Assembly: GCA_047971315.1 (NCBI GenBank)
Contig: JBKDZP010000002.1
Location: forward strand, 7,118 to 71,117
Direction: 5' to 3'
From: Bacilli bacterium
GTDB taxonomy: Bacteria; Bacillota_I; Bacilli_A; RF39; UBA660
Length of the DNA stretch: 64,000 bases
A program made the position numbers and the translations under genes. This document shows positions 9,184 through 46,106 of this stretch, piece by piece. How positions within the stretch are numbered: the stretch's first letter is position 1; every line of letters starts with the position of its first letter. The notes beneath the pieces were generated by a model. It worked only from the letters and a program-made list of their open reading frames with translations. It was not told the DNA's origin and ran no database searches.

Positions 9184-9456
9184 AAGTTACTTTATCAAAT
9201 AGTGTTGGTGAAGTCAATACTTAGATAAATGAGTACAAGAATAGGGAGTTCATAAAGAATTCTCTTTTTTGATATAATTTTATAGGATTCAATAATCCCT
9301 TTATTTATATTTTTCTCATTTTAAAATGTTTAAAAAATTTTTTTTATAAAGAAAAAAAGAATGAGTAAAATTGTAAAAATTTTAATAAGTGAAAATAGAA
9401 AATTGAAATTTAAGTGAAATTAGTGTTATACTAAAAATAAAGATAGGAGAAGTAAA

Positions 9457-9594
9457 ATGAAGTATACAAATTTTAAACAACAAGGTTTTACATTAATAGA
9501 GTTATTAGCAGTTATAGTAATATTGAGCCTTTCAACCAGACTGTGTCTGACACGGTTAGTTTTCATGGCTAATGAAAATCAAGAGGGAATTTAG
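9457..9594 (+). pseudogene. Truncated type IV prepilin gene (only the N-terminal 23 codons are homologous)
   Basis: MKYTNFKQQG|FTLIELLAVIVIL then unrelated sequence; 9423-9524 is highly similar to 44329-44430; not in the ORF track. Confidence 0.85.
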
Positions 9595-9743
9595 AAAAGA
9601 TAATTAAATAAAAAAAATGTAACGTCTAAACAAGAAATATATTATTTCAAAGGTATTGATGTCTACTAAACAGTATACCATCACAATAATCCTTTTTTAT
9701 TTGCAATTTAATTTAATTTTTCGTATAATTATTATTAGTTAGG

Positions 9744-11279
9744 ATGATTTATATGGAAAACTCTAGAATAAAAAATTCAATTAGAAATTCAAGTGTTTCT
9801 TTAATAACACAAATATTAACGGTTTTAATTAATTTTATTGTTAAAACTGTATTTATTAAGATGCTAAGTAATGAATATTTAGGTATAAATGGATTGTTTT
9901 CCAATATAATTACAATGCTATCATTAGCTGATTTAGGTATTGGCATGGCTATACCATACAGTTTATATGAACCATTAGCTAAAAATGATAAGAAAAGAAT
10001 AAAAATATTAATGAAATTTTATTCTAAAATTTATAATATTATTGGAATAGTTGTATTATTAATTGGTTTATCATTAATACCATTTTTAGAATTTTTAATC
10101 AAAGATATTCCAGATATTAGTCATTTAGGATTTATTTATTCTTTATTTGTTTTACATTCAGCTTCTAGTTATTTCTTTATTTATAAAAAGTTTTTGGTAG
10201 ATAGTGATCAATTAAGTTATATTACATCTAGAATTGTTTTTATATTTTCAACAATACTTTCTGTTGTTCAAATAATTATTTTATTATTATTTAAAAATTA
10301 TATTTTATTTTTATTTGCTAGCGTAGTATTTGTTGTATTACAAAATTTGGTTATTTCTAGTAAAGTTAATAAGATGTATCCATATATTAAAGATAAAGAA
10401 GAAGGCAATTTAAATAAAGAAGATGTTAAAGATATTACTAAAAATGTTTCATCATTATTTATTTATAAGGTGGGTACAGTTATTACTAATGGTACCGACA
10501 ATATTGTTATTTCTAAGTTTATAGGACTTATTGCTGTTGGATTTTATTCTAATTATTTATTAATTATTAATTCATTAAATAATATAGTAAATCAAATATT
10601 TAATTCAATTACTTCTAGTATAGGTAATTTGGTTGTGACTACAAATTCAAAAAGAAGTTATAGAATTTATGAAAACTTGAATTTTTTTAGTTTTTGGTTA
10701 TATGGTTTATGTTCAATTTGTATAATGGTGATGATCAATCCATTTATTAGTTTATGGATAGGTAGTGAATATACTTTAGGTATTGAAGTTGTATTTTTAC
10801 TAGCATCAAATTTATATACAATGGGTATGCAAAATGTGACAAATTCGTTTAGAAATTCATATGGACTTTTTTATATTGCAAGATTTAGACCAGTAATTAT
10901 GGTCATAATAAATATTGTTGTATCAATTCTTTTAGTACAATTTATTGGTATAGCCGGAGTAATTATTGGAACTATATTTAGTAGATTAGTTACAACTACC
11001 TGGTTAGATCCATATATTGTACATAATCATGGATTTAAAATTTCTCCAAAAAAATATTATTTAAAATATAGTTTATATTTATTAGTTTTTATACTTACAA
11101 ATTGGATTGTTTACTTTGTAACTTCAAAGATTATTATTTCTAATATATTTATGTGGATATTAGTTGGTATAATTTCAGTTGCTTTAGTAAATATTATATT
11201 TTTATTGATATTTTTTAAAACTTCAGAATTCAAATATTTTTATAATAAAATTATTAGTAAATTTCGACAATTTAAATAA
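9744..11279 (+). CDS. Wzx/MurJ-superfamily polysaccharide flippase
   Basis: YLGINGLFSNIITMLSLADLGIG, TDNIVISKFIGL; about 14 TM segments. Confidence 0.85.
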   Translation: MIYMENSRIKNSIRNSSVSLITQILTVLINFIVKTVFIKMLSNEYLGINGLFSNIITMLSLADLGIGMAIPYSLYEPLAKNDKKRIKILMKFYSKIYNIIGIVVLLIGLSLIPFLEFLIKDIPDISHLGFIYSLFVLHSASSYFFIYKKFLVDSDQLSYITSRIVFIFSTILSVVQIIILLLFKNYILFLFASVVFVVLQNLVISSKVNKMYPYIKDKEEGNLNKEDVKDITKNVSSLFIYKVGTVITNGTDNIVISKFIGLIAVGFYSNYLLIINSLNNIVNQIFNSITSSIGNLVVTTNSKRSYRIYENLNFFSFWLYGLCSICIMVMINPFISLWIGSEYTLGIEVVFLLASNLYTMGMQNVTNSFRNSYGLFYIARFRPVIMVIINIVVSILLVQFIGIAGVIIGTIFSRLVTTTWLDPYIVHNHGFKISPKKYYLKYSLYLLVFILTNWIVYFVTSKIIISNIFMWILVGIISVALVNIIFLLIFFKTSEFKYFYNKIISKFRQFK

Positions 11280-11302
11280 AATAAAATGGTATATTAATAT
11301 AG

Positions 11303-11482
11303 GTGATAATTATTAAAGTTAAAATATTTGATGAAGGACATGAAAGTGATTTAGAAACAGCTATTAATGATTTTATTGAACAAAAAAAAGTTGAAGTTAT
11401 TGATATTAAATATCAAGTAGCTGTAAGTGTATTTTCAGAAGAACAAGTATTTTGTTTTTCCGCAATGATTATTTATAATTAA
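11303..11482 (+). CDS. cse60: Sporulation protein Cse60 (DUF2758)
   Basis: Not in the ORF track; IKVKIFDEGHESDLETAINDF…IDIKYQV…EEQVFCFSAMIIYN matches B. subtilis Cse60/YteV. Confidence 0.8.
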   Translation: MIIIKVKIFDEGHESDLETAINDFIEQKKVEVIDIKYQVAVSVFSEEQVFCFSAMIIYN

Positions 11483-44141: not shown

Positions 44142-44154
44142 TGTCCTTTTTTTG
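44115..44154 (+). repeat. Left 40-bp direct repeat (permease 3' end, stop codon and terminator)
   Basis: aaaatgtttaaagcaatgaaggactaatgtcctttttttg. Confidence 0.95.
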
Positions 44155-44362
44155 GTGGAAATTTCCAAACCGAGTGTATAAATAAATATTAAAGTAAGAA
44201 AATTTTCACTTTTTTTTTATATATTTAAAATTAATAAATAATAAATATATAAAAACTAGAATATAATAGCCTGAATTTAAATTAAAGATAAATTTTTAAT
44301 TCAAATTCATTGTCAATTTATTAATATTGTGTTATTCTAAAGTAGAAGATAGGAGTAGTAAA

Positions 44363-46012
44363 ATGAAGAATTATAATTTAAGACAACAAGGTTTTACTTT
44401 AATAGAGTTATTAGCAGTTATAGTAATATTAGCTGTAATAGCATTAATCGCTACACCAATGATATTAGGTGTAATAGATACAGCAAAACATGGAGCTGCA
44501 GAATCAAGTGCACTAGGATTTGTAGATGCTATCGAAAAAACAGTAATATTAAAAATGATGGATGGTGAAGTAATGAAAGGTGATTATACCGTTGCTGAAT
44601 TAAAAAATTCAGTATCATTTAAAGGAAATGGTCCTTCAAAAGGTAAAATTACTATATCTACAGTAGGTGAAGTTAGTAGTGCTACATTATGTATAAATAA
44701 TTATAAAATTAGTTATGACGGTAAAAAGGCAGAAGTAGTAGAAACAAATTGTGATGATATGAGTGAAGTTTTAGAAAAATACACAGAAAGTATATTAAAT
44801 GGAACAGATCCAGTATTAGGAACAAATATGATCCCAGTAATAATAGCAGATAATGGGGATGTAACATATGCAGATACTAATACAAAATGGTATAACTATG
44901 CAAGTAAGGTATGGGCAAATGCTGTAATATTAATAGATTCACCATCTACAACATATGTAATTGGAGATACAATAATTGAAAATGATATAGAATCATACTT
45001 TGTATGGGTGCCAAGATATAAATATAAGTTATTTAATACAGGAGAGTACTCTGGATATATAACAGGTAAAAATTCAACATCAAATGCACAAACAATAGAA
45101 ATAGTTTTTGAAAGTAAAGATAAAACAGTATCAAATGGTACATTAGTGGGAAATTATCTAACACATGTAACATTTACTACTTTAGATGTAAATGGTATGT
45201 GGGTAGGAAAATTTGAAACAGGATATGCTGGAGCAACAAGTATAGGTACAGCTCATGTAAATACTATAGATTCAAGTAAAATAATAGTTAAACCAAATGT
45301 ATATTCATGGAGATATAATACAGTATACAATATGTTTATGTCGGCATATAATTATGATACAACAAATGGTTCACATATGATGAAAAATACAGAATGGGGA
45401 GCAGTATCATATCTATCAAGTTCAGTATATGGAATAAATAAAGAAGTAAATATAAATAATAATAGCTCATATTTAACAGGATACAGTGCTGTAGAAGGTA
45501 CAGATCAAAGTAAATTTTACGGAACATTTGAAGCTTCATCAGATATAACATTACCATATAATACAACAACAGGATATTTAGCAAGTACAACTGGAAATAT
45601 ATCAGGAATATATGATATGTCAGGTGGTGCACATGAATATATGGCATCATATATTAGTGGTCAATTAGGAAGTAGTGGATTTGATACTACAACCATAGCA
45701 AATACAGATTATACAAAGTACTTAGATGTATATAATGCAAGTTCTACAATAGATTCTTATCAATATAGAATCTTAGGAGACGCAACCGGAGAAATGGGAC
45801 CATTCTATTATTATAAAGATGGAGATAATAATTATCGACGTCACAATGGATGGTACGCTGATGGTTCGAATTTCGTGGAGGCTTCGAACCCATGGTTCTA
45901 TCGTGGAGGCAGTTTCTATTATGGAGTACTCGCTGGTCAGTTCTTCTTCGATAGGATTACAGGAGAAGGTATCCCTTACATGGGCAGTCGCCTAGTACTC
46001 GCTATAAACTAA
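44363..46012 (+). CDS. Type IV prepilin fused to a C-terminal C-type-lectin/FGE-sulfatase-like domain; putative DGR target adhesin
   Basis: QG|FTLIELLAVIVIL; YFVWVPRY, WVGKFE, KNTEWGAVSYL, GIYDMSGGAHEY, WFYRGG…AGQF…GSRLVL. Confidence 0.88.
   Translation: MKNYNLRQQGFTLIELLAVIVILAVIALIATPMILGVIDTAKHGAAESSALGFVDAIEKTVILKMMDGEVMKGDYTVAELKNSVSFKGNGPSKGKITISTVGEVSSATLCINNYKISYDGKKAEVVETNCDDMSEVLEKYTESILNGTDPVLGTNMIPVIIADNGDVTYADTNTKWYNYASKVWANAVILIDSPSTTYVIGDTIIENDIESYFVWVPRYKYKLFNTGEYSGYITGKNSTSNAQTIEIVFESKDKTVSNGTLVGNYLTHVTFTTLDVNGMWVGKFETGYAGATSIGTAHVNTIDSSKIIVKPNVYSWRYNTVYNMFMSAYNYDTTNGSHMMKNTEWGAVSYLSSSVYGINKEVNINNNSSYLTGYSAVEGTDQSKFYGTFEASSDITLPYNTTTGYLASTTGNISGIYDMSGGAHEYMASYISGQLGSSGFDTTTIANTDYTKYLDVYNASSTIDSYQYRILGDATGEMGPFYYYKDGDNNYRRHNGWYADGSNFVEASNPWFYRGGSFYYGVLAGQFFFDRITGEGIPYMGSRLVLAIN
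45830..46012 (+). other. Putative DGR variable repeat (VR)
   Basis: GC about 47% (80/170, hand count over 45841-46010) versus about 25% in a sampled upstream line; NNY codons and A-free TCG/CGT/CGC/CTC codons. Confidence 0.65.
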
Positions 46013-46066
46013 AATCCTATATTTTGTCAGGACTTTGTTAAGTTAAGTGTGTAAATTTGTTAAGAT

Positions 46067-46106
46067 AAAATGTTTAAAGCAATGAAGGATTAATGTCCTT
46101 TTTTTG
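46067..46106 (+). repeat. Right 40-bp direct repeat
   Basis: aaaatgtttaaagcaatgaaggattaatgtcctttttttg; 39/40 identical to 44115-44154. Confidence 0.95.

Follow-up and report, generated by a model that had tools for sequence, protein, structure and literature searches.

Two questions are raised by a stretch of 64,000 nucleotides from a Bacilli bacterium: what has written the variable ends of its long pilin genes, and how have copies of these genes come to lie among housekeeping genes? The stretch, called the window here, is C2:7118-71117, where C2 is contig JBKDZP010000002.1 of assembly GCA_047971315.1. The source genome (G000) is assembled into 977,605 bp on 19 contigs, with about 24% GC and 90.55% completeness. 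Two long genes of the window, one intact (44363-46012) and one decayed (34735-36701), join a type IV prepilin start to a large lectin-like module. A reading made from the sequence alone (the sequence-only reading) had described them as single-gene cassettes that are placed at terminators and hypermutated in trans by a remote diversity-generating retroelement (DGR). In this study, we consider it probable that the pilin genes of the window belong to a multigene family encoding modular type IV pilins, that their lectin-like ends were written by a DGR, that the window copies are now orphaned from it, and that the copies spread by duplication and insertion.

Prepilin starts and modules of the long genes

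Five prepilin starts with a near-identical signal had been listed in the window (9457, 21926, 22589, 34735 and 44363). All five are real, and each carries GFTLIELLAVIVI. The motif GFTLIELL can be read directly at these starts, which have a cleavage site between G and F, a Glu at mature position 5 and a hydrophobic alpha-1 helix. The N-terminal methylation motif (PF07963) was matched above the cut-off in all four full open reading frames (ORFs), with E values from 2e-10 to 3e-08. The description of one intact, one decayed and one truncated copy also holds: 44363-46012 is open, 34735-36701 is broken, and 9457 is a stub of 56 codons.

The pilin module of the intact product matched profiles of type IV pilins in the PDB, the best being 8pfb (E 8.5e-07). 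The AlphaFold model of this product has a pLDDT of 66-90 over residues 11-130. The second-ranked VIA match of the model was the pilin 6xxd (Z 6.2, model residues 8-135), and 5g2f was also matched (Z 5.7). The N-terminal module is thus predicted to have a pilin fold. The top VIA match among 48,161 chains was the DGR variable protein TaqVP (5vf4), with a middling Z of 7.0 and 233 residues aligned (model residues 153-545). The FGE-sulfatase family (PF03781) was matched in 16 of the 36 aligned family members (best E 6.1e-05), the window protein itself not being among them. The C-type-lectin/FGE fold of the C-terminal module was tentatively assigned from this middling Z score and from the weak Pfam matches in relatives. 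In the family alignment, the body is highly conserved. The last ~60 residues form a scaffold, WY.D.S.FV.S..PWF.RGG....GVLAGQF.F.R.TG....GSRLVL, with hypervariable positions between the fixed ones. The intact window protein is 81% identical in amino acids to a paralogue at C3:129.2k.

Adenine footprint in the variable ends

The sequence-only reading had noted a GC shift at the 3' ends of both long genes, and this was confirmed for the last 129 nt compared with the preceding 900 nt. GC and GC at third codon positions (GC3) were 0.47 and 0.44 in the end of the intact gene, compared with 0.30 and 0.12 before it. The corresponding values of the decayed gene were 0.39 and 0.28, compared with 0.32 and 0.14. 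Over the same 129 nt, GC3 was 0.52 in the template repeat (TR) of the DGR on contig C10 described below, 0.47 in the variable region (VR) on contig C11, and 0.49 in the C3 paralogue. Gene bodies had a GC3 of 0.11-0.18. The ends of the decayed window gene and of a fragment on C16 were eroded to 0.28 and 0.07, respectively.

Five gene ends of the window subfamily (subfamily A) in G000 were compared with the heterologous TRs of three related genomes (L093, L031 and L083). Mismatches occurred in 63 of 125 cells in adenine columns and in 52 of 373 cells in other columns (odds ratio 6.3, p 3e-15). The intact window gene taken alone gave 10/25 and 8/74. At 11 codons that are AAY in the related TRs, positions 1-2 were changed in 47 of 54 cells, and position 3 was still a pyrimidine in 50 of 54; other codons were changed in 54 of 173 cells. 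These sequence comparisons point to an adenine-mutagenesis footprint and a DGR origin of the window variable ends.

Ordinary divergence of paralogues under diversifying selection, with no retroelement behind the window subfamily, would be another way to obtain variable ends. Two observations agree with it and are caveats on the footprint. In the last 54 codons, the intact gene and its 81%-identical paralogue also differ more often at third positions (18/54, compared with 97/490 earlier), and two stretches of the pilin module are as divergent as the variable end (34/60 and 36/60 identical). However, AAY codons that are nearly saturated at positions 1-2 while the pyrimidine is kept at position 3 are the reverse of ordinary divergence. 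The synonymous-site GC of 0.44 against a body GC3 of 0.12 also speaks against it, as do homologues in five other genomes that lie beside a TR and a reverse transcriptase (RT) gene with adenine-specific differences. We regard this explanation as highly improbable.

The resident DGR and its targets

The search of G000 for a DGR, which the sequence-only reading had called for, found a TR, a MutS-like gene and an RT on contig C10. This contig starts within a family gene, whose 3' end is followed by a TR of 127 nt (513-639), a gene with a MutS_I domain (829-1248, E 2.8e-10) and a gene for a 354-aa RT (1577-2641) that matches PF00078 at 5e-17. The RT family search of G000 returned this single RT. 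The accessory gene is the MutS-like one between TR and RT, and Avd (PF05635) had no match in the 90.55%-complete assembly. The genome therefore has an RT beside a TR, an accessory gene, and TR-VR differences that fall mainly at adenines. The order of target, TR, MutS-like gene and RT was seen on C10 and also at loci L031, L064, L083, L091 and L093.

The VR on C11 lies in a prepilin gene with an open frame of 579 codons. It differs from the TR at 17 positions, 15 of them TR adenines. The VR at the edge of C10 differs at 16 positions, of which 10 are TR adenines. The 166 nt upstream of the VR are identical in the C10 and C11 copies and the 3' flank is common, and C11 diverges where C10 has the TR. 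The element therefore has at least two targets.

The claim of trans hypermutation by a remote DGR stood only in part. The DGR of G000 does diversify members of the prepilin-lectin family (C11 and C10), but the long genes of the window do not match its TR. The resident TR was considered as their template and rejected: the best local alignments covered only 39 and 30 nt, mismatches fell at all four bases, and the 3' ends were different.

Relatives and the drift of duplicates

A protein search gave 6,788 proteins at E <= 1e-5 among 8,000 candidates scored, so the family is very large. Among these candidates, the closest protein outside G000 was 67% identical. Many of the homologues (forms of ~580 aa) have a non-pilin hydrophobic N terminus in place of the prepilin motif. 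Among 77 loci from species-representative genomes, five have an RT gene and a MutS-like gene directly downstream of the family gene, and the TR-VR mismatches in these five fall at adenines in 12/12, 23/25, 16/16, 15/17 and 9/9 cases. Homologues of the window genes are thus found in cis to a DGR in other genomes.

A survey of 31 genomes (G000 and 30 related genomes) matched the lectin module in eight: G011 (46 matches), G004 (26), G006 (6), G009 (6), G000 (6), G001 (2), G012 (1) and G019 (1). The RT was matched in nine of the 31 at E <= 1e-20, strongly in G004, G011, G012 and G019. The two genomes with the most lectin-module matches have sizes of ~1.3 Mb (G011) and ~1.2 Mb (G004). In G011, the TR differs from the VR in cis at nine adenine sites and nowhere else, and from one remote copy at 14 adenine sites and two others. 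Fourteen further G011 copies form a graded series, with mismatches at 7-21 of 33-34 adenine sites and at 9-29 of 104-115 other sites. The paralogues in the L031 genome share 62-75% identity with the TR, and they differ from it mostly at non-adenines. The graded G011 series and the L031 paralogues indicate that the drift of duplicates away from a TR is a recurring pattern, and the window copies fit it.

Probable orphan status of the window copies

A gene that is a current DGR target is recognised by a VR nearly identical to a TR of the same genome, with differences at adenines only and a common 3' end. Within the assembled part of G000, neither long gene of the window has such a partner. A second TR was sought in G000 with the window variable regions and the relatives' TRs as queries, and only VR-like gene ends were returned. 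Queries with TRs of the related type recovered no more than five VR-like ends in G000; each of these has 0-3 AAT/AAC motifs, compared with 10-13 in real TRs. BLAST with the window variable ends matched only ends of genes of the same subfamily: C3:129.2k (intact), C8:74.7k (decayed), and fragments on C3 at 110.4k and on C16. The start of another subfamily-A gene runs off the end of contig C6. Since the VRs appear to have been written from another TR type and no such TR is assembled, the window copies are most likely former or orphaned DGR targets whose specificities would now be fixed.

The opposite view is that the long pilin-lectin genes of the window are hypermutated at present, in trans, by the remote DGR of G000. 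The resident element does have at least one target away from its TR, namely the C11 tail, and in a relative, one remote G011 copy matches the TR with 14 adenine-site mismatches against two others. The variable end of the intact gene has also kept a TR-like GC3, and the incomplete assembly with a family gene start at the edge of C6 leaves room for more. Nevertheless, the resident TR aligns with the window VRs only over the short stretches given above. The differing 3' ends are the site of the priming homology that would be needed. The BLAST matches of the window 3' flank include nothing equivalent to the GC-rich hairpin region that the C10 and C11 targets have in common, and the assembly yielded a single RT and no second TR. 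We consider present hypermutation in trans unlikely.

Several points weigh against orphaned, DGR-written pilin-lectins as the explanation. The C6 gene start lies off the contig end in an incomplete assembly, so a second TR or DGR could be unassembled and the intact copy still an active target. The TR-like GC3 of the intact VR implies that templating was lost recently, or was not lost. The adenine-column enrichment was measured against TRs of other genera, and selection acting on the same ligand-binding codons could account for some of it. As to the fold, Pfam returned only N_methyl on the intact window protein, and no lectin or FGE model reached the C-terminal module. Foldseek against the PDB gave nothing at E <= 0.001, with TaqVP, Mtd and FGE as weak rows at ranks 10, 20 and 24. 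The structural model is mediocre, with a mean pLDDT of 64 and values <50 across the variable region.

Another arrangement would combine a generator with an archive. In it, the DGR would explore specificities on one or two TR-matched pilins, drifted duplicates would be a frozen repertoire of tip lectins, and duplicated terminators would be the footprint of the copying. The copying step would possibly be a terminator-stalled template switch or a cDNA-based event, and the intact window copy with its TR-like GC3 would be a recently archived or still-served member. We offer this idea tentatively and think it rather unlikely.

Flanking repeats and the proposed insertion of copies

Each long gene is bracketed by direct repeats of the upstream gene's end and terminator, as had been claimed: 39/40 nt are identical at the intact gene and 37/46 nt at the decayed one. 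The statement that the two repeat pairs are unrelated in sequence is also correct. The 46-nt repeat scored 23.5, whereas 300 shuffles reached at most 22.5 and 300 random genomic pairs at most 19.5. A hairpin had been reported after each long gene. It is present directly 3' of the decayed gene, but the 3' flank of the intact gene is unstructured (z 0.3), and there a hairpin occurs only in the terminator of the downstream repeat. The inverted repeat at 36719-36786 far exceeds the usual length of a terminator.

The 14-mer TTAAGATAAAATGT sits at the right junction of the intact gene. It occurs only twice more in the genome, once 3' of the DGR target gene on C10 and once 3' of that on C11, in both cases immediately ahead of a terminator hairpin. 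The sequence hints that the right junction may have formed at a 7-nt microhomology. The limit of 5' homology varies between copies and lies ~40 nt, ~100 nt or at least 330 nt upstream of the start codon. Neither the genome nor the family loci gave a significant match to the insert flanks of the intact gene.

A dedicated site-specific or hairpin-targeting recombination system, which inserts the long genes as single-gene cassettes at terminators and duplicates the latter, would account for the two bracketed genes and for the position of the 14-mer at one junction and 3' of two other family genes. Xer-like and other tyrosine recombinases are also encoded elsewhere in the genome. The wider evidence is against such a system. 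Flanking repeats were checked at all prepilin genes of G000, of which 20 of 21 were testable, and only the intact window gene stood out, apart from the trivial terminator of the tandem short pilins. Terminator repeats were found at 0 of 59 family genes in other genomes. Furthermore, the 5' homology limit differs between copies, no recombinase gene occurs in the window, and the insert flanks match nothing else in the genome. A one-off single crossover or template switch explains the 40-nt duplication equally well. Because the repeats are absent at the other G000 prepilin genes and at the 59 family genes elsewhere, a general cassette mechanism is not supported, and we judge it quite unlikely. 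The claim of single-gene cassettes placed at terminators was not supported: the repeats occur only at the two long window genes, and C2 has no integrase. The words "both long genes" and "cassettes" in the sequence-only reading overstate the regularity of the pattern.

In our view, the repeats are traces of two separate insertions, not of a dedicated cassette system. A single crossover on short homology would fit the repeats, and so would a template switch. The nearest genomes compared belong to other genera (YqfD <=51% identical), and synteny upstream of yqfC is not kept. An ABC-2 permease gene beside yqfC was found at 0 of the 8 relatives' loci inspected. A 31-nt pattern taken from the 40-nt repeat gave 0 stretches in a scan of metagenome contigs.

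Birth and death of family members

The proposal of a birth-and-death family is supported by the contents of G000. Four FGE-type copies are intact, two more copies have decayed, two survive as 3' fragments and one as a 5' stub. The reading frame of the decayed window gene is closed by stops at 35059 and 35224, changes near 35600 and meets further stops at 35682 and 36393. The stub at 9457, whose 56 codons run from stop to stop, keeps ~100 nt of common upstream sequence and the first ~28 codons, after which the sequence is unrelated. The following ORF (9744-11279) encodes a Wzx-like flippase, not a pilin.

Overall, the observations of the sequence-only reading were confirmed in part, and its interpretation was supported in part. 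The DGR, the birth and death of copies and the footprint were supported; current targeting and the terminator-insertion system were not.

Pilus machinery of the source genome

G000 encodes the cognate type IV pilus machinery, namely a prepilin peptidase, an assembly ATPase and a platform protein, and none of these is encoded in the window. A pilus operon lies ~4 kb downstream of the DGR on C10, with three prepilins, a PilB-type ATPase, a PilC-type platform protein (T2SSF) and a PilM-like gene. The prepilin peptidase (Peptidase_A24) is on C7, an intact T2SSE is on C8, and the PilB-type ATPase gene of C10, the other T2SSE, carries an in-frame TGA. The absence of pilus assembly genes, RT and integrase from the window had been noted correctly, since family matches to T2SSE ATPase, prepilin peptidase, integrase and RT are all off C2. 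The integrase family search of G000 gave none on C2 and placed the Xer-like and other tyrosine recombinases on other contigs. Between the DGR and the pilus operon (C10:4442-5400), two adjacent ORFs resemble the halves of a tyrosine recombinase. One half matches PF00589 at E 0.0019, which is below the cut-off, and the other is similar by eye only.

The in-frame TGA on C10 (10317-10319) falls exactly at the Walker A glycine of the PilB-type ATPase (VT*PTGSGKT). This position prompted us to consider translation of TGA as Gly (table 25), which was rejected on three grounds. In ORFs of at least 150 codons, the median open reading past TGA is six codons, equal to that past TAA and TAG, so TGA is an ordinary stop in G000. 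No tRNA(UCA) was among the 25 tRNAs found in the genome. The decayed window gene is still broken when read with table 25. The C10 ATPase gene is a pseudogene or contains a sequencing error. Among the 127 ORFs of G000 that end in TAG, 13% have an open continuation of at least 60 codons; the values for TAA and TGA are 7% and 8%.

Features of the window and neighbouring genes

The features of the window are listed in Table 1. The pilin starts are scattered among housekeeping genes, as had been stated, and their neighbours include Clp ATPase, ThrRS, DnaB/DnaI-like proteins, RNase R, MutS, an ABC transporter and YqfC/YqfD. The product of 21926..22381 is a candidate major pilin, and one same 27-nt terminator follows each gene of the tandem pair. 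As a tandem pair, these short pilins resemble PilE1/PilE2 of Streptococcus sanguinis, and 8pfb, the profile match given above, is PilE1.

Table 1. Coordinates of pilin genes, variable ends, repeats and hairpins in the window
Feature	Position	Strand	Remarks
Prepilin-lectin stub, subfamily A	9457..9594	+	72% identity over 36 aa to P0001; upstream alignment
Short type IV pilin, 151 aa, first of tandem pair	21926..22381	+	PF07963 E 9e-10; 53% identity to P0001 pilin module over 133 aa
Short type IV pilin, ~150 aa, second of tandem pair	22589..23059	+	PF07963 match
46-nt degenerate direct repeat, upstream copy	34591..34636	+	End of ORF 33914-34603 and terminator-like hairpin
Decayed prepilin-lectin gene	34735..36701	+	63% identical to P0001 over residues 194-559; 4 in-frame stops, at least 1 frameshift
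Eroded variable-region-like end of decayed gene	36570..36698	+	GC3 0.28
AT-rich hairpin, 32-nt arms, near-perfect, directly 3' of decayed gene	36719..36786	+	-29.4 kcal/mol, z -10.2
46-nt degenerate direct repeat, downstream copy	36869..36914	+	37/46 nt
40-nt direct repeat, upstream copy	44115..44154	+	Last 27 nt of ABC-2 permease gene (42816-44141) and intrinsic terminator
Intact bimodular type IV pilin, 549 aa	44363..46012	+	Pilin module ~residues 1-135; FGE-sulfatase/C-type-lectin-like module ~150-549
Predicted DGR-type variable region of intact gene	45881..46009	+	Invariant scaffold with hypervariable codons; GC3 0.44
14-mer TTAAGATAAAATGT	46060..46073	+	Junction with downstream 40-nt repeat
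40-nt direct repeat, downstream copy	46067..46106	+	39/40 nt; serves as pilin-gene terminator; just upstream of yqfC

A tRNA-Arg(TCT) gene lies at 33311-33387, ~1.3 kb upstream of the decayed pilin-lectin gene, and two ORFs with no family match (33580-33921 and 33914-34603) lie between the two genes. The tRNA gene and these ORFs may mark an island boundary. Sporulation genes were found in G000. The genome has ~21 prepilin-motif genes in ~1 Mb. Further modular pilins of 572-1340 aa, on C3, C4, C8, C12 and C16, carry ALK_LTK glycine-rich domains (two genes), fn3/BNR and Big_2 modules.

Proposed mechanism and its meaning

In the product of each long gene, a class III (prepilin) signal precedes a pilin module, which is joined to a module of ~400 aa with a predicted FGE-sulfatase/C-type-lectin fold. 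The last ~45 codons of this large module would be a DGR-type variable ligand-binding region. The proteins would be cleaved by the prepilin peptidase encoded on C7. They would then be displayed, probably at the tip, on pili made of the two tandem short pilins of the window, with assembly machinery from C8 and C10. The single assembled DGR (C10) rewrites a sister subfamily, namely the C11 copy and the C10-edge copy. For the VRs of the window subfamily, the template of adenine mutagenesis would have been another type of TR, which is present in related genomes. The window copies may represent different stages of decay (intact, pseudogene and stub). New copies would arise by duplication and insertion, and the 40-nt and 46-nt terminator repeats would be the traces of two such events.

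The family reaches 46 matches in one relative of 1.3 Mb. It would strongly shape the ecology of gut Bacilli with reduced genomes if such pili attach these bacteria to a host, to mucus or to partner cells. In that case it would also provide a natural collection of lectin-like binders, and the gradation between copies that match the TR and copies that have drifted would allow the birth, fixation and loss of DGR targets to be studied.

Comparison with known systems

In Neisseria, the pilE/pilS system pairs one pilus locus with numerous partial or silent pilin copies dispersed over the chromosome. In the present family, unlike in pilE/pilS, the variation is templated by a retroelement; no sign of gene conversion out of the decayed copies was seen, and no search was aimed at it.

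The variable proteins of known DGRs with a C-type-lectin/FGE fold, such as Mtd of a Bordetella phage, TvpA of Treponema and TaqVP of Thermus, likewise have a C-terminal VR on a conserved scaffold and TR-VR differences at adenines. The likeness extends to TaqVP as the top structural match and to the FGE-sulfatase matches in the family. The difference is that the variable module is fused here to a type IV prepilin, and that most paralogues no longer match the TR. Non-adjacent targets, C-type-lectin/FGE folds and MutS-like accessory genes of DGRs are already described in passages of a survey (PMC5758913). According to the same survey passages, all DGRs that contain a MutS-like gene also carry avd, whereas the G000 DGR has a MutS-like gene and no match to Avd (PF05635).

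Our literature search found no paper on DGR-diversified type IV pilins. The main text of PMC8144416 contains none of the words pilin, pilus and pili, and that of PMC5758913 contains neither pilin nor pilus; the supplementary tables of the surveys may list targets that bear N_methyl. For type IV pilins, only PMC11661182 was found to touch on the subject: it names a "G-type pilin" domain once, in passing, when it lists rare domains that carry a VR.

For modular type IV pilins, a role as tip adhesins has been proposed in passages on Streptococcus sanguinis, in which PilB has a vWA module and PilC a lectin module (PMC8179133). These proteins too begin with an IPR012902-type prepilin motif and a small pilin module, to which a large functional module is attached. 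In the window family, by contrast, the module is hypervariable and the gene is multicopy. The passages of PMC8179133 hold no mention of an FGE-sulfatase module or of retroelements.

A parallel in function is the DGR variation of type V pilus tip adhesins in gut Bacteroides, as described in part of a preprint (bioRxiv 10.1101/2024.11.15.621889). There too, a gut bacterium varies the ligand-binding subunit of a pilus tip by means of a DGR. The pilus type (lipoprotein pathway) and the phylum are different, the DGRs lie on integrative and conjugative elements, and "type IV" does not appear in that text. DGRs and modular type IV pilins are each known; combined, as in the family described here, they would amount to a retroelement that writes the binding tip of type IV pilins of the Gram-positive type.

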